The notes beneath the pieces are model-generated. The model did not search any database and had not been told where the DNA came from. It worked only from the letters and a program-made list of their open reading frames with translations. The position numbers and the translations under genes are program-made. A DNA stretch of 64,000 nt from Candidatus Doudnabacteria bacterium RIFCSPHIGHO2_02_FULL_42_25 (lineage in GTDB: Bacteria > Patescibacteriota > Doudnabacteria > UBA920 > O2-02-FULL-48-8), in NCBI GenBank assembly GCA_001777665.1, contig MFEQ01000004.1, positions 64,679 through 128,678 of the forward strand, in the 5' to 3' direction. This document shows, one piece after another, positions 2,861-63,245 of this stretch (the stretch's first letter is position 1; each line of letters begins with the position of its first letter).

Positions 2861-4298
2861 TATGAATCGCACGCTTATTAAAGATACAATCAACAAAACC
2901 GAGCAGGAAGTTTTAATTAAAGGCTGGGTCAACATCAGAAGAGATCATGGCAAATTGATTTTTTTGGATATCCGGGACCGATCTGGTTTGATTCAAGCCG
3001 TGATCAATCCTAAGGTTTCTGCTGAAGCGCATGCGGTTGCCTCTGAAATCCGCAACGAATATGTAGTCGAGCTGATCGGAAAAATCAATCCACGCGGCGA
3101 AAAACAAATAAATCTAGACCTCGAAACTGGAAAGATCGAAATCGAAGTTACAGGGCTAAAGATAATCAACGGTGCCAAGCCACTCCCCTTTGATATTACT
3201 TCAGACACGAGAACGGTTTCCGAAGAAATACGTCTAAAATACAGGTATTTGGATTTGAGAAATGAGCGAATGAAAAAAAATCTCAAGCTAAGACATAATG
3301 TCATCCAATTCATCAGAAATTATTTGATGGGACTTGATTTCACGGAAATCCAAACACCAATCCTTACTAAATCAACACCTGAAGGAGCAAGAGATTACCT
3401 AGTACCATCGAGGATTTATCCTGGTAATTTTTTTGCATTGCCTCAATCTCCACAACAATACAAACAGTTGTTAATGGTTGGTGGAATAGAACGATACTTT
3501 CAGATAGCTCCGTGTTTTCGTGATGAAGACGCCAGAGCCGATCGAAGTCCGGGAGAATTTTATCAACTCGATCTTGAAATGTCTTTTGTCGAACAGGAAG
3601 ATATTTTAGAGTTGACTGAAAAATTGTTTACCGATTTGGTAAAAACTCTTACTCCAGAAAAACATATAACTTTTTCTCCTTGGCCAAGAATTACCCACAA
3701 AGAAGCAAAAGCGAAATTCGGAAATGACAAACCAGATATGCGTAAAGATAAAAATGATCCGAATGAATTGGCTTTTTGTTGGGTTTTAGATTTTCCTCTT
3801 TTCACTGAACAAACCGAAGAAGATTTCTTTCACGGAGCAGGAGATAAATGGGGGCCTTCGCATCACATGTTTACTGCTCCCAAATCGGAAGATATTCCAT
3901 TACTAGATACAGATCCAGGAAAAGCTAGAGGGTTACAACACGATTTGGCTTTGAATGGTGTGGAAATTGGCGGAGGTAGCATCCGTATTCATGATCCAAA
4001 AATTCAGGAAAAGATTTTTGATTTGATTGGATTTACTAAAAAGCAGAAACAACGATTCAATCACATGCTAGAAGCTTTTGAATATGGCGTTCCCCCTCAT
4101 GGTGGCATAGCTCCAGGAATAGATCGATTAGTTAGAATTTTAGCAGGGGAAGAAAAAATTAGTGAGGTCATCGCTTTTCCTCTCTCTGGATCAGTTCGCG
4201 ACCCTATGATGGGTTCCCCTTCCGACGTGTCAGACAAACAACTCAAAGAATTACACATCAAAGTGGATTTACCAAAGGAGAAAAAAATAGATATTTAA
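2861..4298 (+). CDS. aspS: aspartyl-tRNA synthetase, short archaeal/eukaryal-type (likely non-discriminating)
   Basis: OB-fold N-terminal domain, class II motifs (QSPQQYKQLLMVGGIERYFQIAPCFRDED, GGGSIRIHD), about 479 aa without GAD insertion; start moved to ATG 2861 (track ORF starts at 2751 inside the convergent neighbour). Confidence 0.85.
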
Positions 4299-4300
4299 TT

Positions 4301-4424
4301 CCCCCTCTTAGAATAAGAGGGGGTTAGGGGGGAGTTAGATCTCAAGCGTTAAACAGCAGCTTAATCCTTAAAGGATATAACCCCTCCTAGCCTCCCCTTA
4401 ATATAAGGGGAGGAACAACAGCAT
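4301..4424. mobile_element. MITE-like palindromic element (family 1: CCCCTCTTAGAATAAGAGGGG ... CTCCCCTTAATATAAGGGGAG); miniature of the DUF559 element at 33796-34251
   Basis: Both hairpin ends match the inverted ends flanking the DUF559 ORF; same 120 bp unit present in reverse orientation at 55135-55252. Confidence 0.7.
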
Positions 4425-4442
4425 ACACTCACCACCCTCAAT

Positions 4443-4511
4443 CCCATCTCGAACAGAGTGAGAGATCCCTCTTAAGAGCGATTTCTCGACTCGTTTCACT
4501 CGCTCGAAATG
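4443..4511. repeat. GC-rich hairpin repeat (family 2/3: CCCATCTCGAAC / GAGAGATCCCTC..GAGCGATTTCTC..CGAAATGG)
   Basis: Shares blocks with 56186-56240 and 62170-62193 and (reverse-complemented) 62604-62616. Confidence 0.6.
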
Positions 4512-4716
4512 GTTTACAAATTATATGCAATATCTTAAATCGGTCATAAATATTCTTTGGATCATAACTCTGATTATTGTAATAATTAATGATATCCAAA
4601 CACCAGGCACTGCACCTATACACTATTGGTATTTTTATGCTGCTTCAGTTATGATAATACTTAGGTTTATTGACGATAAATTTTATAAATCAAATAGTAA
4701 AAAATAACCGCTTTCC

Positions 4717-5190
4717 ATGGTTAATAAAATGATATCAAAACCTTTAGAAAAACTACTTAAAGCAAATAAAATCAAATACGAAATTGCGGAACACCGAAAA
4801 GTGTTCACGGCTATTGATGCTGCTGCAACGCAAGATTTAAAAACTGCTGAAGTCGCCAAAGCTGTACTTCTCAAGGGCAAAAACAATCTTTATTTGGCAG
4901 TTTTGCCTGCCGGTAACAACTGCGACTTTAAGGCGTTGAGTAAGCTTACCGCGGATAAAGTTTCCATGGCCAAGGAAAAAGATATTTCCAAAAATATCAA
5001 TGCCAAAATTGGTTTAATTCCCCCATTTGGTTCACTTTTCAAACTTCCCGTTTATCTGGATAAAAAATTACTGAAAAATAAAAAAATAAATTTACCAGCT
5101 GGATCATATACTGAATCTGTGGTTTTGAGTGTGAAAGATTATCAAAAACTGGAAAATCCGATTCTGGGAAACTTTAGTATCAAAAAATAA
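4717..5190 (+). CDS. YbaK/ProX-family aminoacyl-tRNA deacylase
   Basis: 157 aa, YbaK-like trans-editing domain pattern (GKNNLYLAVLPAGN...LIPPFG). Confidence 0.55.
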   Translation: MVNKMISKPLEKLLKANKIKYEIAEHRKVFTAIDAAATQDLKTAEVAKAVLLKGKNNLYLAVLPAGNNCDFKALSKLTADKVSMAKEKDISKNINAKIGLIPPFGSLFKLPVYLDKKLLKNKKINLPAGSYTESVVLSVKDYQKLENPILGNFSIKK

Positions 5191-14808: not shown

Positions 14809-14818
14809 GGAATCCTTT

Positions 14819-14838
14819 CCTGCCTGCCGGCAGGCAGG
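14819..14838. repeat. perfect 20-bp palindrome CCTGCCTGCCGGCAGGCAGG (copy 1)
   Basis: Identical palindrome at 29607-29626 and 32015-32034; variant at 35660-35679. Confidence 0.9.
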
Positions 14839-14905
14839 CGTTAATGATGTAAAAGGATTCTATCATTTCAGGCAATTTAGAGAATTGGTATTTAGTCCAA
14901 TGTGA

Positions 14906-22975: not shown

Positions 22976-22995
22976 TCTTGTGATCGCGAGTTTCC

Positions 22996-23070
22996 TACGA
23001 AATACGAATTGGTACGAAACTACGAACTGGGCTTAATTCTTTCGTATTTTCGTAGATTTTCGTAGTTCGG
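22996..23070. promoter_or_regulatory. TACGAA/TTCGTA iteron palindrome (copy 1) in mraZ 5' region
   Basis: 4 direct TACGAA repeats then 3-4 inverted TTCGTA repeats; same architecture at 31445-31524, 35119-35190, 61170-61264, 63134-63245. Confidence 0.7.
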
Positions 23071-23104
23071 AGAGAAAACTCCATTAATAGCTACAGGAAC
23101 CGAG

Positions 23105-29593: not shown

Positions 29594-29606
29594 ATTTTTT
29601 GTTCTC

Positions 29607-29626
29607 CCTGCCTGCCGGCAGGCAGG
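29607..29626. repeat. perfect 20-bp palindrome CCTGCCTGCCGGCAGGCAGG (copy 2), intercistronic
   Basis: Abuts stop codon of upstream gene, 13 nt before next ATG. Confidence 0.9.
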
Positions 29627-30169
29627 TTAGTACGCCTCGACCTTGGCGAAATTATTCAAAAAATTAATATTTGGAGTTTCAAATTTATAAGGCATCTCCA
29701 ACTCCAATTCATAAGTTGGTTCGGTATCTATAGAACCAATCTCTATTATTGCTCCCAAAACCTTTCCTTGTGTATCGTATGAAATCTGTTGTTGCCCCTC
29801 ATAACCCGATCTCACCTGGTCAGTTAAATGATTAATCGCGAGTGAGTAAGCTTCTATTGTTGGTTCGAAATCCTCGAATGGAATTGTTGCAACTTCAGTG
29901 AAGGCCAGATAGAATTGTTCATAAAAATCATTTTGCGCATCCCAAACGAAGGTAACCGTATCGACAACTCCCTGGGCTTGCTGATTCATATCAAGAATCG
30001 TAACTGCCTGCGCTACATCAGACTGCATTTGAGGAGTGAGGCCGGTGAAAAAAACAATTCCAACCACTACCACACCGACAAATCCCCAGGCAACTAATGA
30101 AGTCTCAAACCAATTTAAATTTTGATAATCTGTTTTCATAATATGCTTTTTGTTTTTGAAGATAATCAA
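29627..30169 (-). CDS. membrane-anchored protein, paralog family member 3
   Basis: TM, VVDTVTFVWDAQNDFYEQF motif. Confidence 0.45.
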   Translation of the reverse strand: MIIFKNKKHIMKTDYQNLNWFETSLVAWGFVGVVVVGIVFFTGLTPQMQSDVAQAVTILDMNQQAQGVVDTVTFVWDAQNDFYEQFYLAFTEVATIPFEDFEPTIEAYSLAINHLTDQVRSGYEGQQQISYDTQGKVLGAIIEIGSIDTEPTYELELEMPYKFETPNINFLNNFAKVEAY

Positions 30170-31444: not shown

Positions 31445-31524
31445 CTACGAACTTACGAAATTTTTACGAAAGTACGAAGAGCTAATTTTTTTCGTATTTT
31501 CGTACTTGTTCGTACTTTCGTAGC
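31445..31524. promoter_or_regulatory. TACGAA/TTCGTA iteron palindrome (copy 2), immediate rplJ leader
   Basis: Ends 10 nt upstream of rplJ ATG. Confidence 0.7.
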
Positions 31525-31729
31525 CGTTAATTATATAAAATAAAAACTGTCAGATTCAAAGACAGTGATTGCTTGCCGATTTATCGGCTCTCATCTGCTT
31601 AGCGAATTAAGGCATATAGCCAGCTAAGGTCTTTGAATTAAGTTCTCACATAGTATAAATGATTTTCGGCATCAGGTCAAGAGCGCAACCTCGATAAAAA
31701 ATCGGGTCCCATATAGGAACCCGGCGGGT

Positions 31730-31936: not shown

Positions 31937-32014
31937 CTTCGCACCCCTGTGGATAACAGCTTAACATAAAAACCCCAGCTTTCGCCAGAGTCCCTTTTTA
32001 CTTATTACTTTTTA

Positions 32015-32034
32015 CCTGCCTGCCGGCAGGCAGG
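32015..32034. repeat. perfect 20-bp palindrome CCTGCCTGCCGGCAGGCAGG (copy 3)
   Basis: 7 nt after mltG stop; flanked by TTACTTATTAC motifs. Confidence 0.9.
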
Positions 32035-32041
32035 CTTATTA

Positions 32042-33677: not shown

Positions 33678-33795
33678 GTACCTAATATTCTTTTTTATTT
33701 TTGTTTCTTTAGTAAGACTCTCACCTTACATACATAGTATAGCAAATTTTCCGGATTTTGTAAATAGGTATGAGTAATTTCGCCCGCAGTTTTTC

Positions 33796-34251
33796 CCCTC
33801 CTAGAATAGGAGGGGCTAGGGGTGGTAGAACCTAAGGCAACTCACGAGAAATTTTTTCAATTACACCTTCAATACTTTCCCGAACCTCATCATTCGTAAA
33901 ACGAAGAAGTCGAATTTGATTAGATTCTAAAAAAACTTCTCTTCTCTTGTCATATTCGTTTCCTTTTGGATCTAGAAAATGTGAATCACCATCTACTTCA
34001 ATTCCTAACCTTAATTCATTACAATAAAAATCCAAAATATAATTACCAATTCCATATTGTCGTCTAAATTTATAACCTTTAAGGTTCTTACCTCTTAGAT
34101 AATACCAAAGAATCTGCTCTGCTTGAGGCATATTGTTCCTTAGTTGCTGTCTTCTGCTTTTATATTCTTTTTTGTTGTATAAATAATCCATACTTTATTC
34201 TACCTCACATTCTACCCCACCTAACCTCCCCTATTCTAGGGGAGGAACAAC
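33796..34251. mobile_element. small palindrome-ended element carrying a DUF559 nuclease gene (ends CCCCTCCTAGAATAGGAGGGG / CCTCCCCTATTCTAGGGGAGG)
   Basis: Inverted hairpin ends flank the ORF; MITE-like ORF-less derivatives at 4301-4424 and 55135-55252. Confidence 0.65.
33832..34191 (-). CDS. DUF559 (Vsr-like PD-(D/E)XK) endonuclease-domain protein
   Basis: LW..LR...GYKFRRQYGIGNYILDFYCNELRLGIEVDGDSH hallmark of DUF559. Confidence 0.8.
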   Translation of the reverse strand: MDYLYNKKEYKSRRQQLRNNMPQAEQILWYYLRGKNLKGYKFRRQYGIGNYILDFYCNELRLGIEVDGDSHFLDPKGNEYDKRREVFLESNQIRLLRFTNDEVRESIEGVIEKISRELP

Positions 34252-34317
34252 TGCAAGCTTTCGCAAAGGCGATTTCCGGGATGGTTAAAAAACGTTAATT
34301 AATTTTTCTTCAAAAAA

Positions 34318-35061: not shown

Positions 35062-35118
35062 TTTACCAATTCACCCCCTCTCATCCCCTCCCACCCCCAT
35101 TCTCGACCTTTAAGATAT

Positions 35119-35190
35119 CTACGAACTACGAATTTTTACGAATATACGAACTGGGGTTAACCCTTTTCGTAAATTCGTGTTTGTTCGTAA
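35119..35190. promoter_or_regulatory. TACGAA/TTCGTA iteron palindrome (copy 3) with GGGTTAACCC core
   Basis: 58 nt upstream of 35061 start. Confidence 0.7.
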
Positions 35191-35631: not shown

Positions 35632-35659
35632 GAACGTACCTTTCTTAATAAATTATTAA

Positions 35660-35679
35660 CCTGCCTACCGTCAGGCAGG
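35660..35679. repeat. 20-bp palindrome variant CCTGCCTACCGTCAGGCAGG (copy 4)
   Basis: In hup 5' region, next to a GC-rich island. Confidence 0.8.
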
Positions 35680-35769
35680 CAATCTGAAAACCAGTATAGC
35701 AAATCCTTAACAAATACGCTAGTTGCGGTCAAGGAATAAAAAAAGACCGCGGGTTTTAGTGACCGACGG

Positions 35770-49329: not shown

Positions 49330-49383
49330 TTGATTTGAGTTTTTCTATTAAGCAAATTATATCATTTTTCATACCCATAGTCA

Positions 49384-49452
49384 CCCATCCCAGACGCCAC
49401 GAAGGGCGATCCGGGATCCACTTTATTGGACCCCGGATCAAGTCCGGGGTGG
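49384..49452. repeat. GC-rich hairpin repeat family 3 (ATCCCAGA..TCCGGGAT / ACCCCGGATCAAGTCCGGGGT)
   Basis: Two hairpins; the second is identical at 56330-56353. Confidence 0.7.
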
Positions 49453-54936: not shown

Positions 54937-55134
54937 GGGTTCACCTCAATTCAATCATAACAAATTAAATCCTGTGGATAACACAACGATGCCAAAAATT
55001 GAAAATAACCTCAAAGCAGAGCGCCGAGAAGTCAAAAAACGCCCCCGAATGAAAGTCCACGGAGCCTCTTTGAAACGGCCATCTAAATTTGCGGGTCTAA
55101 AAATTGTAAAGAAGAAAAGTTAACTTGATGTTGC

Positions 55135-55252
55135 CAGCAGTTGTTCCTCCCCTTAATATAAGGGGAGCTAGGAGGGGTTATCCTTAAGCGTTAAGCTGCT
55201 GTTTAACTCTTGGAATCAACTCCCCCTAACCCCCTCTTATTCTAAGAGGGGG
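55135..55252. mobile_element. MITE-like palindromic element (family 1), reverse-orientation copy of 4301-4424
   Basis: Near-identical block order in reverse complement. Confidence 0.7.
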
Positions 55253-55268
55253 AATTTACAGCAAACTT

Positions 55269-56201
55269 ATGTCTAACAAACTAATAGTAATTTTAGGCCC
55301 TACCACCTCGGGGAAATCATCACTCGCTATCAATCTCGCCCAAAAATTCAATGGCGAGATTATTTCTGCTGACTCCAGGCAAGTCTACAAAGGCATGGAT
55401 ATCGGCACTGGTAAAGTTACTAAAGCAGAACAAAAACTAATCAAACATTATCTTCTCGACGTCTCCTCCCCAAAAAAGCAATTCACTGTTTCGGATTTTA
55501 AGCGTCTTCTAATTTCAGCGATCGCTCAAATTAGAGGAAAAGACAAATTGCCTTTCTTAGTTGGTGGCTCGCCTTTTTATATTTATGCGGCCATAGATAA
55601 TCTACAAATTCCAGAAGTCACACCCAATCAAAAACTACGTAATCAACTACGTAGAAAAACTACTACCCAACTTTTTGCCATGCTTAAAAAACTTGACCCA
55701 GTTCGAGCAAAAAATATTGATAAAAATAATCCTCGGAGATTGATAAGAGCTATTGAAATAGTAAAAGCGACGGGAAAGCCGGTACCACCCCCACCTAACC
55801 TCCCCCTGGCAGGGGGAGGTGCCTTGATCATTGGGATCAAGAAGTCTCGTAAACAGCTCTACAAGCTTATCGATCAACGACTTGAGCAAAGACTCAATCA
55901 AGGAATGGTTAATGAAGTCAAAAAACTTCTGAAACAAAAAATCAGCCACAAACGGCTGCAAGAAATGGGATTAGAGTATCGCTTTATTTCTCTTTATCTG
56001 CAAGATCATCTCACCTATGAGCAAATGGTTGAACAATTGAAAAGCGCTATTCACAAATTCAGCAAACGCCAAATGACTTGGTTCCAAACCGACAAACGTA
56101 TCAAATGGATCTCTTCAGAAAAACAAGCAGAACGACTAATTAAGGACTATATAAAACCATCTCGACCCCGGACTACGATCCGGGGGAGAGATCCCTCCTG
56201 A
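55269..56201 (+). CDS. miaA: tRNA dimethylallyltransferase
   Basis: P-loop GPTTSGKSSLAINLA, DSRQVYKGMDIGT; carries two in-frame palindromic insertions (55789-55819 and 56166-56201). Confidence 0.85.
   Translation: MSNKLIVILGPTTSGKSSLAINLAQKFNGEIISADSRQVYKGMDIGTGKVTKAEQKLIKHYLLDVSSPKKQFTVSDFKRLLISAIAQIRGKDKLPFLVGGSPFYIYAAIDNLQIPEVTPNQKLRNQLRRKTTTQLFAMLKKLDPVRAKNIDKNNPRRLIRAIEIVKATGKPVPPPPNLPLAGGGALIIGIKKSRKQLYKLIDQRLEQRLNQGMVNEVKKLLKQKISHKRLQEMGLEYRFISLYLQDHLTYEQMVEQLKSAIHKFSKRQMTWFQTDKRIKWISSEKQAERLIKDYIKPSRPRTTIRGRDPS
55789..55819. repeat. family-1 hairpin CCCCACCTAACCTCCCCC-TGGCA-GGGGGAGG inserted in-frame in miaA
   Basis: Shares 17-mer CCCCACCTAACCTCCCC with element end 34215-34231; translated as PPPNLPLAGGGA. 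Confidence 0.7.
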
Positions 56202-56366
56202 GAGCGATTTCTCACTAATCGTTCGAAATGGGTAATCCCATCCCGGACGCTACAAGCGAAGCGCGGGCGATCCGGGATCCACTACACTAATTAATATCAA
56301 ATGATTCTTATTTGAAATGGACCCCGGATCGGCTTGATCGCCGGAGAGACGATCAAGTCCGGGGTG
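56166..56366. repeat. composite GC-rich hairpin repeat (family 2/3) overlapping the miaA 3' end
   Basis: CCCCGGA-CTACGA-TCCGGGG encodes the last miaA codons; GAGAGATCCCTC block; ATCCCGGA..TCCGGGAT; ACCCCGGATC..GATCAAGTCCGGGGT. Confidence 0.7.
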
Positions 56367-56706
56367 GATTATTTACAAAAATTCTTTCTACTGCTTTTGC
56401 TGAAATGAATCCAAGTATAATAAATAGCACTAAATCTAACCCTAGCGCTAAATAATTTTTTCTAATTATAGTGTCTTCACAATATGTTTTTTTAGTCACG
56501 TAAGATCCATTGGAAAACTCGAACGGCCAACCTATGGGACGTTGTAATCCAACGCCTACAGGATTACAGAGGGTGTACAGGTCACTCTTTCTTATCTGTC
56601 TTTCATTTTGCCCTAACGCTATCTGATAAGATTTGTCTCCGAATCGCATAGATAGAAATCCGAACAATAAAAGAGATAAAATTATACAAATAATCTTTAT
56701 TATCAT
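56353..56706 (-). CDS. small membrane protein, unknown
   Basis: 117 aa, 2 TM. Confidence 0.35.
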   Translation of the reverse strand: MIIKIICIILSLLLFGFLSMRFGDKSYQIALGQNERQIRKSDLYTLCNPVGVGLQRPIGWPFEFSNGSYVTKKTYCEDTIIRKNYLALGLDLVLFIILGFISAKAVERIFVNNPPRT

Positions 56707-61169: not shown

Positions 61170-61264
61170 CTACGAAAGTACGAATTCTCGAATTACGAAC
61201 TGTTCGCCCGCCTGCCATGACGGCATGTCGGGCAGGTAGTTTCGCAATTTCGTATTTCGTAGAA
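61170..61264. promoter_or_regulatory. TACGAA/TTCGTA iteron palindrome (copy 4) with core CGCCCGCCTGCC..GGGCAGG, abutting htpX ATG
   Basis: Core is the reverse complement of the core in copy 5 (63151-63192). Confidence 0.7.
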
Positions 61265-61269
61265 ATACC

Positions 61270-62154: not shown

Positions 62155-62169
62155 CCATATTGACCTAAC

Positions 62170-62193
62170 CCATCCCGAACTTGATCCGGGATC
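62170..62193. repeat. family-3 hairpin CCCATCCCGAACTTGATCCGGGAT
   Basis: Left flank of GC-rich ppnP-like gene. Confidence 0.6.
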
Positions 62194-62233
62194 TTTTTCA
62201 TGCTAAAATCCTCCTACTGAATCAGGAGGAAAC

Positions 62234-62512
62234 GTGCTTACACATCGCATTCACGAAAACCGCAGAGGCTTAGGTAACGCCCAGAGTCTGTACTTCCAAG
62301 ACTCCTCGGATCGGTTCAGCGTCGGAATCGTTGCCCCAGGACGATACCCTTTCAAGAAGCAACCTGCTCAGAGCATAAAGGTCGTCCGCGGCGCGCTTGA
62401 AATCAACGGCATCAACTTCACACCTGAATCTGGTCCCTGCATTATTGAAGGGGGTCAGAACGCAACTGTAGTTGCGACTCAACCGTCGGCCTACATCTGC
62501 GAAGGCGACTAA
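62234..62512 (+). CDS. PpnP/YaiE-like (DUF1255) pyrimidine/purine nucleoside phosphorylase, GC-rich
   Basis: Alignable by eye to E. coli YaiE (YF..SVG..G.Y.F...GAL....EAG..F.VP...T.YLC); GTG start; SD AGGAGGA sits inside hairpin TCCTCCT-loop-AGGAGGA. Confidence 0.5.
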   Translation: MLTHRIHENRRGLGNAQSLYFQDSSDRFSVGIVAPGRYPFKKQPAQSIKVVRGALEINGINFTPESGPCIIEGGQNATVVATQPSAYICEGD

Positions 62513-62603
62513 TAATCGCCTGAACTTCAATTTACAGAGCCTGACTCGTTCGGCTCTTTCTTTTTTTAAAACATTAGCGAAAAATCACTTCTTAAGGCTC
62601 TGA

Positions 62604-62678
62604 AGAGGGATCTCTCCCCCGGATCGGAGTCCGGGGTCGAGATGGTTACCTATTTGGTCCGATCGTACAAATAGGTAA
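62604..62678. repeat. family-2/3 repeat (GAGGGATCTCTCCCCCGGATCGGAGTCCGGGG) plus hairpin TTACCTATTTG/CAAATAGGTAA
   Basis: Right flank of ppnP-like gene, abuts recX stop. Confidence 0.6.
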
Positions 62679-63105: not shown

Positions 63106-63133
63106 ATCTGCTATAATATTAGTATAGTACTGC

Positions 63134-63245
63134 CTACGAAAGTACGAAAGGATTACCTGCCCGACATGCCAGTCATGGCAGGCGGGCGAAAATACGAAAG
63201 GTTTTCACACATGTTCGTATTTCGAACAAATTCGTAGTTCGTAGA
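63134..63245. promoter_or_regulatory. TACGAA/TTCGTA iteron palindrome (copy 5) in the recX/clpC divergent region
   Basis: Inverted copy of 61170-61264 including the GC-rich core. Confidence 0.7.

Follow-up and report, generated by a model that had tools for sequence, protein, structure and literature searches.

What are the palindromic sequences that fill the spacer behind aspS in a genome of Candidatus Doudnabacteria, and how did different repeats come to lie side by side there? The question was raised by a first-pass annotation of a 64-kb stretch of DNA (hereafter, the window) originating from Rifle aquifer groundwater. The gene row at this place is aspS/small ORF/ybaK/scpAB. The aspS gene (2862–4298, plus strand) encodes an archaeal/eukaryote-type AspRS of 478 aa (Pfam tRNA-synt_2, E 1e-113); its coordinates agree with the gene call on identical contigs, and the protein is 100% identical to that of Candidatus Doudnabacteria RIFCSPLOWO2_02_FULL. 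The repeat patch begins immediately 3' of the stop codon (4296–4298). A small hydrophobic ORF of 60 aa (4525–4707, plus strand), present in the ORF list and annotated as a gene in contigs L002 and L003, starts 12 nt 3' of the patch. It is followed by a ybaK-like aminoacyl-tRNA editing gene (4717–5190, plus strand; Pfam tRNA_edit, E 4e-24), the downstream anchor of the spacer. A promoter and terminator scan detected no plus-strand promoter-like site and no terminator-like site in 4300–4520, and the 60-aa ORF is probably cotranscribed with aspS through the patch. A minus-strand ORF at 4438–4623 overlaps the palindrome, has no Pfam match and was discarded as spurious.

Folding of the whole patch was much stabler than that of shuffled sequences (z = -6.5). 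Its GC content was 46.8% (4301–4520), with 49% in 4443–4511, compared to 41.2% for the window and 26–32% for the AT-rich downstream flank; the contrast of about 60% against 35% proposed initially was not reproduced. Two unrelated repeat families are indeed neighbours here, as first proposed, but they do not abut directly: an 18-nt spacer, ATACACTCACCACCCTCA (4425–4442), lies between them. Similar ATAC..C-rich stretches precede units at 49371 and at L092:16615, and from this weak, by-eye observation ATACACTCACCACCCTCA may be a leader of the second element. We assign a probability of roughly 0.6 to the reading that the patch consists of two different non-coding palindromic mobile elements, both gene-less forms of nuclease cassettes, in the transcribed aspS/small ORF/ybaK/scpAB spacer.

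The first element, family 1, occupies 4299–4424, where a 120-bp MITE had been placed at 4301–4424. It is 126 nt long and non-coding, and the hairpin-bearing end on one side is an inverted copy of that on the other. The predicted fold comprises a terminal hairpin (4301–4323), a long central stem (about 4324–4390) and a second terminal hairpin (4391–4413), followed by the terminal GGAACAACAGC to 4422. A second shell of this family (copy B) lies on the minus strand at 55137–55256, between a small conserved ORF and the start of miaA. In a BLAST comparison within the window, the two copies were 87.8% identical over 123 nt (E 6e-23), and in a global alignment 111 of 126 positions were identical. Because copies A (at aspS) and B have the same non-coding centre, the gene-less form itself appears to have been copied.

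A full-length relative of these shells is found at 33786–34254 on the minus strand. There, a 119-aa Vsr-like nuclease ORF (33832–34191, minus strand; 30.8% GC; Pfam DUF559, E 1.9e-32; PDB 3HRL, E 7e-18) lies between hairpin-bearing inverted repeats of 52 nt (33786–33837 and 34203–34254) with 79% complementarity. Both ends of 4299–4424 match the hairpins and tails of these repeats, and the signature motif GGGGAGGAACAACWGC occurred three times versus 0.00 expected. As judged from the matching ends, the arms of family 1 are those of a DUF559 (Vsr-like PD-(D/E)XK) cassette. Hairpin inverted repeats bracketed the DUF559 gene in all five loci examined from Doudnabacteria, Uhrbacteria and Nitrospinota, among them L089 and L090 (Doudnabacteria), L098 (Uhrbacteria; 36-nt repeat, 92% complementary) and L099 (Nitrospinota; 41-nt repeat, 93% complementary). 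The genomic sites differed: CAP and MscL-like genes in the window, tfoX and mgsA in L089 and L090, rpiB and rpe in L098. In 13 of 120 homologues the protein has a tail such as LPPLTPPILGGE, produced when translation reads through into the hairpin arm. The DUF559 search gave 1890 matches at E below 1e-10, and many homologues were located on very short contigs. The cassette of the window is abutted by a family-2/3-type half unit, AAGCTTTCGCAAAGGCGATTTCCGGGATGG (34255–34284, minus strand), and this is a second site with both kinds of element adjacent.

The second element of the patch, family 2, had been listed as a hairpin block at 4443–4511 and was found at 4443–4512, running from CCCATCTCGAAC to CTCGAAATGG. 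It is non-coding, 70 nt long, and composed of a left arm (4443–4471; CCCATCTCGAAC-AGAGT-GAGAGATCCCTC), the centre TTAA (4472–4475) and a right arm (4476–4512; GAGCGATTTCTC-GACTCGTTTCACTCG-CTCGAAATGG), so that its arms read CCATCTCGA..GAGAGATCCCTC and GAGCGATTTCTC..TCGAAATGG. The family-2 signature GAGAGATCCCTCNNNNGAG was present three times versus 0.00 expected. In a close relative (L085) and a metagenome contig (L065), a 93-aa GIY-YIG ORF (Pfam E 5e-11 and 1e-13, respectively) lies exactly between family-2 arms, CCCATCTCGA..GAGAGATCCC and AGCGATTTCTC..TCGAAATGG, and the four blocks of 4443–4512 have the same order and orientation as in these cassettes. A gene-less family-2 copy (L065:6418-6506) is located right beside the L065 cassette. 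No GIY-YIG gene was found within the 64-kb window, and NCBIfam and cluster look-ups for the GIY-YIG protein returned nothing further. The arrangement at the two loci identifies 4443–4512 as one defined element, apparently a UPF0213-type GIY-YIG cassette frame without its gene, and this replaces the view of the block as a loose set of GC hairpins. Both kinds of cassette thus have the same plan, one small ORF enclosed by family-specific inverted repeats with a stable hairpin in each arm.

Recurrence of the block elsewhere in the window was largely corroborated. The copy indicated at 56186–56232 gave a core match at 56186–56213 (92.9% over 28 nt, E 1e-5) and is part of a family-2 shell at 56157–56232 (plus strand) with a CCCCGGA..TCCGGGG hairpin nested in its left arm. 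The reverse-complement copy indicated at 62604–62616 corresponds to a match at 62597–62616 (95% over 20 nt, E 0.003), within a family-2 copy at 62565–62647 (minus strand) between a Ppnp-like ORF and recX. This copy forms an inverted repeat 94% complementary to 56155–56205; its left arm is intact and contains a nested hairpin, and the right arm is degenerate. The recurrence indicated at 62170–62193 stands only in part: it shares nothing beyond a 12-nt head, identical at 11 positions of the 12, and the design of the hairpin; BLAST gave no match, and the sequence is a simpler family-3 unit. A metagenome scan with GAGAGATCCCTCNNNAGAGC returned 52 loci, of which L032 is the window's own genome, L038, L052 and L065 contain further family-2 copies, and L066, L067 and L069 contain a different repeat, GAGATCCCTCG..CTCGGGATGAC; the remaining loci (about 45) look like chance matches. 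A genome scan with a 20-base pattern gave one real locus (Doudnabacteria L084) and one chance locus.

Overall, the 64-kb stretch holds at least five palindromic repeat families. The units begin with CC(C)AYC, and the consensus of the family-3 unit is (C)AYCCYGRA-CTTGN-TYCRGGRT-C. Inverted pairs of this unit occur upstream of dnaE, where promoters diverge (49384–49452), and at 56237–56367, where the pair contains nested hairpins and fills the gap to the stop codon of a convergent gene; such pairs were also present in L086 and L088. Family-3 GC hairpins are nested inside family-2 arms at 56159 and 62643 of the window, at L038:577 and in L087. A single unit followed by TTTTT (62169–62193, plus strand) lies after the M48 peptidase gene and is terminator-like; L092 has CCCCGGA-CTTGG-TCCGGGG plus a T-run in the same place.

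Hairpin units were also found in frame within genes, in miaA (window, L091 and L092) and in prmC (L092). In miaA of the window, a solo family-1-type arm, CCCCACCTAACCTCCCCCTGGCAGGGGGAGG (55789–55820, plus strand), encodes PPNLPLAGGG, as supported by the direct repeat, the hairpin, the protein alignment and the DNA of relatives; L091 and L092 have a family-3 hairpin in this linker instead. The miaA reading frame runs further into the family-2 shell at 56157–56232 and ends at a TGA in the shell centre. All homologues of the window's MiaA are shorter, by about 13 aa.

Comparison with related genomes separated the two halves of the patch. Family 1 does not occur between aspS and ybaK in any of the four relatives (L085–L088) and so behaves as a lineage-specific insertion at this site. 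Copy B upstream of miaA is likewise absent in L091 and L092, where the flanking genes overlap or abut. Seven family-1 hairpins were counted in the window, six in L088 (with copies in the lgt/RNase H and scpA/scpB spacers) and none in five other Doudnabacteria loci. The family-2/3 patches after miaA (56157–56367) and before dnaE (49384–49452) are missing in L091 and L092, and the gap between the two convergent genes at the miaA end is only 0–4 nt in relatives. By these comparisons, the gene-less copies are dispersed and their presence varies between related genomes. The empty sites come from other species, with about 75–84% protein identity, and no clean empty-site junction is definable. The ends of family-1 copies A and B have no target-site duplication in common; the flanks of copy B show a possible imperfect AACTT(G)ATG repeat, compared to empty sites of other species only. 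The insertion hotspot or nested insertion suggested by the first-pass annotation is partly borne out, by the family-1 insertion and by the family-3 hairpins nested in family-2 arms; the movement itself we infer.

Classical MITEs, such as the Correia elements of Neisseria, resemble both elements of the patch in being non-coding, about 70–130 nt long, strongly structured by prediction, multi-copy, bounded by terminal inverted repeats and located at gene boundaries, and dispersed copies with presence or absence between related genomes were found here as well. They differ in that no clear target-site duplication was seen here, and that the full-length relatives with the same ends encode nucleases (DUF559, GIY-YIG) and no autonomous transposase. 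Free-standing homing endonuclease genes are also small selfish nuclease genes of the GIY-YIG and Vsr-like kinds, and Vsr-like homing nucleases exist. Both nuclease superfamilies found here are used by homing endonucleases, and the place of the DUF559 gene in the genome varies among related genomes. Here, by contrast, the proteins consist of the catalytic domain alone (93 and 119 aa), without a DNA-binding extension, and the genes are chromosomal in bacteria and not in introns or phages. The GC-cluster/double-hairpin elements of fungal mitochondria are mobile hairpins that collect near nuclease genes and at gene ends.

For RUP, one of the small pneumococcal repeats, an IS630-type transposase is the presumed mobilising enzyme, and we know of no nuclease-cassette partner of BOX, RUP or SPRITE. 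These different families gather at shared intergenic positions, where they insert into each other, and some are terminator-like (PMC10969869); clustering and mutual insertion are shared with our elements, but the sequences are unrelated and the host belongs to another phylum. Rickettsia palindromic elements (RPE) are tolerated in frame in essential protein genes (PMC10969869), comparable to the hairpins that encode a variable linker of MiaA and part of PrmC. This likeness is one of description, and RPE measure about 100–150 bp versus 26–31 nt for our in-frame units.

The REP/BIME repeats and REPtrons of gamma-proteobacteria, in which a RAYT gene is flanked by inverted REPs, also share features with the elements described here. 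Both are short imperfect palindromes that pair in inverted orientation at gene ends and within operons, occur as genome-specific variants without a clear target-site duplication, and combine a presumed mobilising gene between inverted repeats with many scattered gene-less copies; the family-3 unit is itself an imperfect palindrome of 20–40 nt in inverted pairs. These features would suit a rival explanation in which REP/BIME-type elements are moved by an HUH (RAYT/IS200-like) transposase encoded elsewhere, the nuclease genes are secondary invaders homing into palindrome centres, and the gene-less copies are empty targets. A homing endonuclease gene usually interrupts the very site that its product recognises, so a gene between two arms would be expected. 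Neither nuclease is linked to repeat mobilisation beyond the sequence arrangement, and the genes could be invaders of pre-existing palindromes. Nevertheless, we consider this explanation unlikely. The gene tables of the fetched Doudnabacteria loci, a small part of each genome, contain no Y1 transposase, and no RAYT gene flanked by repeats was present in these tables. The family-specific arms travel with their own nuclease gene across phyla, which fits gene and arms moving together. The units have no GTAG or CGTC tag at their ends, by which the two REP super-families are named (PMC3733652). Compared with REP/BIME repeats and REPtrons, the arms here are longer (35–70 nt) and composite, the in-frame copies in miaA and prmC depart from a purely extragenic location, and the enclosed genes encode a Vsr-like PD-(D/E)XK DUF559 protein and a UPF0213 GIY-YIG protein, unlike the HUH Y1 transposase of REPtrons.

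A second rival explanation regards only family 1 as selfish and the family-2/3 half as a selected, vertically inherited RNA element of the aspS 3' region, such as a hairpin for mRNA stabilisation or processing, an attenuator or a weak terminator. A conserved structured RNA in the orthologous spacer, recognisable by covariation in place of presence/absence differences, had been named at the outset as the finding that would speak against insertion, and for the family-2/3 half it was encountered in part. Related hairpin modules follow aspS in three of the four relatives, and the modules of L086 and L088 differ by six compensatory double stem changes, with the loops CTTGA and TTTC identical. Three of eight stem pairs covary across ten unit copies, a count biased by the choice of copies with perfect stems. 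The hairpin with a T-run after the M48 gene, in both the window and L092, is in line with the same explanation, and selection for a function as RNA or terminator would likewise suit hairpin modules that stay in place behind aspS and the M48 gene while their stems change in a compensatory way.

Set against this, the module architecture differs between relatives and L085 has none, and the same units lie in the divergent promoter region at 49384–49452 and in frame in miaA and prmC and are absent at orthologous sites. Searching the whole window against Rfam 15 at gathering thresholds matched only tRNAs, and at E up to 10 the region 4250–4560 yielded nothing except far-below-threshold miRNA and sRNA matches driven by hairpin shape; a known RNA family was rejected accordingly. 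The patch has no U-tract, while canonical A/T-tract terminators exist elsewhere in the window. An intrinsic terminator at the patch was rejected as well: no terminator-like site was present in 4000–5000, GGTTTAC follows the patch, and among our elements only 62169–62193 qualifies. We therefore hold the RNA explanation to be improbable; the aspS 3' site looks like a favoured place of recurrent occupation or replacement and not like one conserved RNA gene.

That the similarity arose by chance, or that the assembly was wrongly joined at a repeat, has a negligible probability: short repeats often break or mis-join metagenome assemblies, and many DUF559 homologues sit on very short contigs, but the patch is base-for-base identical in four contigs assembled independently from different samples of the same population with different assemblers and is hence not an assembly artefact, and neither the signature motifs, at three occurrences versus 0.00 expected, nor the family-1 match at E 6e-23 suggest chance.

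Several other candidates were considered and rejected. The cassettes are solitary, with repeats on both sides, and neither an array nor an integrase was found nearby as for integron cassettes (attC). In IS200/IS605 PATE elements the hairpins are on the same strand, while the arms here are true inverted repeats. Hammerhead and twister ribozymes were dismissed for lack of core motifs and Rfam matches, and a k-turn for lack of a 3-nt bulge beside tandem G.A pairs. A phage origin received no support: scans of a viral collection with three DNA patterns and one protein query gave nothing, or chance matches without the element context.

In the preferred reading, that of two mobile elements related to nuclease cassettes, the repeats are MITE/REP-style, yet nucleases, and not transposases, are the products of the genes that have matching ends; how the repeats move is what we infer. 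Family 1 would have entered the aspS spacer in the lineage of the window, beside an older hairpin module. The gene-less forms would multiply as such, copied in trans: the cognate structure-specific nuclease may nick extruded hairpins or cruciforms, and repair would then copy the element into hairpin-prone places at gene ends. Nick-and-repair copying of this kind would lead elements to pile up beside, inside or in place of each other without a visible target-site duplication. The patch probably forms part of the operon transcript and is tolerated there, and it may at most modulate mRNA stability. To our knowledge, neither the DUF559 nor the GIY-YIG family acts as a prokaryotic transposase.

We propose tentatively, as a possibility that may well prove wrong, that minimal nuclease cassettes framed by hairpins make up a class of bacterial mobile elements not described before, REPtron-like and driven by structure-specific nucleases, whose shells and solo hairpins would colonise gene ends and coding loops in the tiny genomes of the Candidate Phyla Radiation (CPR) and in other phyla. 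A search of the literature on DUF559 or GIY-YIG with inverted repeats and on REP or MITE in CPR/Patescibacteria brought up no account of such cassettes. CPR genomes of about 1 Mb are tightly packed, and yet the 64-kb window alone has its five or more palindromic repeat families, some altering protein termini or encoding loops. Read-through of the arms accounts for unusual peptide tails such as LPPLTPPILGGE among predicted proteins, and the cassettes may contribute to contig breaks in metagenome assemblies, where many DUF559 homologues are found on very short contigs. DUF559 and stand-alone GIY-YIG (UPF0213/YhbQ-like) proteins are very common and, as far as we know, have no assigned function. 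Because each family is enclosed by its own hairpin inverted repeats, and gene-less frames are dispersed and polymorphic, it is a testable hypothesis that both are selfish, structure-targeting nucleases that spread palindromic DNA. If the undescribed class is real, it would provide a biological role for two very large protein families of unknown function.

The repeat patch downstream of aspS is a true composite of two distinct and mobile palindromic elements, each framed by inverted repeats in the manner of a small nuclease cassette. The aspS stop codon (TAA, 4296–4298, plus strand) is followed at the very next base by a family-1 element of approximately 126 nt (4299–4424) and then, after an 18-nt spacer, by a family-2 element running from CCCATCTCGAAC to CTCGAAATGG (4443–4512). 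A BLAST search with the patch as query detected, within the window, an inverted second family-1 copy at 55140–55256 (87.8% over 123 nt, E 6e-23), the family-2 core at 56186–56213 (E 1e-5), and its reverse complement at 62597–62616 (E 0.003). The ~120-bp repeat element and the side-by-side position of two families reported by the first-pass annotation were thus confirmed, but the families do not directly abut; of the hairpin-block recurrences it listed, the copy at 62169–62193 has only a 12-nt head and the hairpin design in common with the patch. The proposed contrast of ~60% GC in the patch against a ~35% background was not reproduced: GC content was 46.8% in the patch and 41.2% in the window, AT-richness being confined to the flank just downstream. 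The signature motif of each family occurred three times vs. 0.00 expected from shuffles, and the fold energy of the patch was −81.5 kcal/mol vs. −52.4 ± 4.5 in shuffles. The structural claims on the patch elements are well supported.

The family-1 element consists of two hairpins, CCCCCTCTTA/TAAGAGGGGG and CCTCCCCTTA/TAAGGGGAGG, on either side of a long central stem, with AACAACAGC following the second. The same ends frame a 469-nt unit at 33786–34254 with 52-nt inverted repeats (79% complementary), the sole ORF of which (33832–34191, minus strand, 30.8% GC) encodes a full-length DUF559/Vsr-like nuclease (Pfam E 1.9e-32; PDB 3HRL E 7e-18). Such bracketing is a general arrangement: two other Doudnabacteria (L089 and L090), an Uhrbacteria MAG (36-nt repeat, 92% complementary), and a Nitrospinota MAG (41-nt repeat, 93%) all have C/G-rich hairpin inverted repeats on both sides of their DUF559 genes. 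Among the 120 best DUF559 homologues, 13 have a translated arm as a tail (e.g., LPPLTPPILGGE) or as a head (e.g., SSPRIGEVRRG); by hand translation, the arm of the window cassette reads LPPLAPPILGGE. The two gene-less family-1 copies in the window have a common non-coding center (111/126 identical), and therefore the gene-less form itself was copied. Three family-1 elements with a left arm almost identical to that of the window were present in a relative's locus (L088), all at other sites, and none were found in five other Doudnabacteria loci examined. A family-2/3-type half unit (34255–34284, ..GCGATTTCCGGGATGG) directly adjoins the DUF559 cassette at its right end, so that, at three of its four sites in the window, family-1-type sequence has a family-2/3 hairpin beside it or replaces one.

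The family-2 element is composed of a left arm CCATCTCGA-x-GAGAGATCCCTC, a 4-nt center, and a right arm GAGCGATTTCTC-y-CTCGAAATGG, which is approximately the reverse complement of the left one. Each arm forms a 5-bp stem with tandem G.A pairs; its cap is either a loop, which varies, or a nested hairpin. A motif scan across all fetched loci revealed two full cassettes and one gene-less neighbor. In L085, a relative's locus, and in metagenome contig L065, a 93-aa GIY-YIG ORF (Pfam E 5e-11 and 1e-13, respectively; closest solved structures, UPF0213 proteins 1ZG2 and 1YWL) separates the two arms in the layout ...GAGAGATCCC-TTTAACAAAGTTCC-ATG...TAA-AGCGATTTCTC.... The gene-less copy adjoining the L065 cassette, ..GAGAGATCCC-TTAAATAA-AGCGATTTCTC.., matches the window form ..GAGAGATCCC-TCTTAAG-AGCGATTTCTC... 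Further gene-less copies were found in L038 (two), L052, L065, L084, and L087, and no GIY-YIG gene was found in the 64-kb window. Pattern matches in high-GC metagenome contigs of other organisms (L066, L067, and L069) included a different repeat, GAGAGATCCCTCG..(A)GCTCGGGATGAC, which has the GAGATCCCTC core in common with family 2, to which it may be distantly related as an element of the same type.

The family-3 unit, (C)AYCCYGRA-CTTGN-TYCRGGRT-C, is simpler than family 2. It occurs singly, as inverted pairs (49384–49452 and 56237–56367), and, at 56159, 62643, and L038:577, capping the arms of family-2 copies. Compensatory changes affected three of eight stem pairs with the loop kept (10 copies, 7 loci), these copies having been picked for perfect stems, which biases the pairing percentage. 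Downstream of the M48 peptidase gene, in the window and in L092, the unit is followed by a T-run and is terminator-like; ordinary A/T-tract terminators are present elsewhere in the window. At 62169–62647, a family-3 unit on one side and an inverted family-2 copy on the other flank a GC-rich (53%) Ppnp-like ORF (62234–62512), which is therefore framed by oppositely oriented repeat units. Another palindromic family, approximately four TACGAA units opposite approximately four TTCGTA units, was exclusively intergenic (22995–23073, 31445–31525, 35118–35175, and 63129–63245, the last with a nested GC hairpin; half copy at 61234–61266). The short perfect palindrome CCTGCCTGCCGGCAGGCAGG had four copies near gene ends (14816–14839, 29604–29627, 32012–32035, and 35657–35680).

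The aspS-ybaK spacer is 418 nt long in the window and contains a family-1 shell, a family-2 shell (shells being gene-less copies of the cassette frame), and a small ORF. In four relatives, with AspRS 84, 82, 80, and 80% identical to that of the window, it comprised, respectively, 186 nt with only the small ORF and no hairpins (L085), 71 nt with two tandem hairpins (L086), 96 nt with a family-2 copy 2 nt after the stop and a CCTGCCTGCCGGCAGGCAGG hairpin nested in it (L087:11437–11534), and 72 nt with two hairpins differing from those of L086 by six compensatory changes with identical loops (L088). None of the four relatives had family 1 in this spacer, which favors the insertion proposed earlier. 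Hairpin modules persist there in three of the four, two of them differing by the compensatory changes, which partly speaks against insertion for the family-2/3 half. We infer that family 1 arrived here in the lineage of the window, beside an older hairpin module.

Both families vary in presence among related genomes. Near miaA, the upstream family-1 copy, the downstream 210-nt family-2/3 patch, and the hairpin pair upstream of dnaE were not found in two relatives' loci (L091 and L092), where the genes neighboring the element-free sites overlap or are only 0–4 nt apart. An unannotated, very basic 44-aa ORF just upstream of miaA (54989–55123, MPKIENNLKAERREVKKRPRMKVHGASLKRPSKFAGLKIVKKKS) is conserved in both, where it overlaps miaA or abuts it at its start; in the window, insertion of the family-1 copy has separated the two. 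Different hairpin families reuse the aspS 3' end and the hypervariable MiaA linker between TGKPVP and LILGIKK. In the window, the linker PPNLPLAGGG is encoded by a family-1-type hairpin arm (55789–55820, within miaA 55269–56201), and in L091:7639 and L092:10530, RYPELVSGSQ and RHPELGSGS are encoded by an in-frame family-3 hairpin; palindromic repeats thus reside in-frame in an essential gene. At 56157–56201, the stop position of relatives' MiaA is missing, and the frame enters the family-2 element for approximately 13 codons (KPSRPRTTIRGRDPS), ending at a TGA in its center; all 120 homologues listed cover only 93–97% of the window MiaA query (most 95%). PrmC of L092 (L092:81–989) contains ..VIPAKAGIQTKSSLSGSRIKSGMT.., in which LSGSRIKSGMT is a translated in-frame family-3 hairpin (ATCCCGGATCAAGTCCGGGAT) and IPAKAGIQ looks like another translated hairpin type.

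The gene row is aspS, a 60-aa hydrophobic ORF starting 12 nt downstream of the patch, ybaK-like, scpA, and scpB. Proteins 100% identical to AspRS and to the ybaK-like protein are encoded on contigs from the Rifle aquifer, and the one matching AspRS is named Candidatus Doudnabacteria bacterium RIFCSPLOWO2_02_FULL. The 3' end of aspS (4278–4298) reads GAG AAA AAA ATA GAT ATT TAA vs. GAG AAA AAA TAG/TAA/TGA in relatives; an additional A within the A-run appears to put an ancestral TAG out of frame, with the apparent result that AspRS gains three C-terminal residues (IDI) and reaches the family-1 boundary. Since a scan of the patch found no promoter-like or terminator-like site on its plus strand, it is probably transcribed as part of this row, its elements probably being neutral passengers in the operon transcript.

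The mechanism of mobilization is hypothetical. Gene-less forms would be non-autonomous and copied with the aid of the cognate nuclease. Extruded hairpins or cruciforms would be the substrate of this enzyme, and subsequent repair would copy the element. This would explain why target duplications are lacking, why elements cluster at gene ends prone to hairpins, and why one hairpin replaces another. A REP/RAYT-type system with nuclease genes as secondary invaders fits the anatomy but is unlikely, no transposase being present in the parts of genomes seen. A selected RNA role of the family-2/3 half of the patch seems quite improbable: hairpin modules do persist at the same position with compensatory changes, but the units also occur in promoters and coding sequence and are variably present at other sites, and the patch has neither a U-tract nor an Rfam match. 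An assembly artefact is excluded by independent contigs carrying the identical patch sequence; the spacer is identical in four contigs from different samples.

Among known systems, these elements are closest in architecture to the REPtron, in which inverted REPs enclose a RAYT gene, and in behavior to the pneumococcal BOX, RUP, and SPRITE repeats, which cluster and insert mutually, and to Rickettsia palindromic elements, which occur in-frame in genes (PMC10969869). They differ from classical MITEs by the lack of a transposase partner and of any target duplication seen, and from REPs in lacking the end tag and in not being confined to extragenic locations. In a full-text literature search of incomplete coverage, which an earlier description may have escaped, neither DUF559 or UPF0213 cassettes bracketed by hairpins nor repeats of this type in CPR bacteria were found to have been described. 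It is notable that palindromic elements of this kind may have as their drivers two nuclease families, both very large and both of unknown function.
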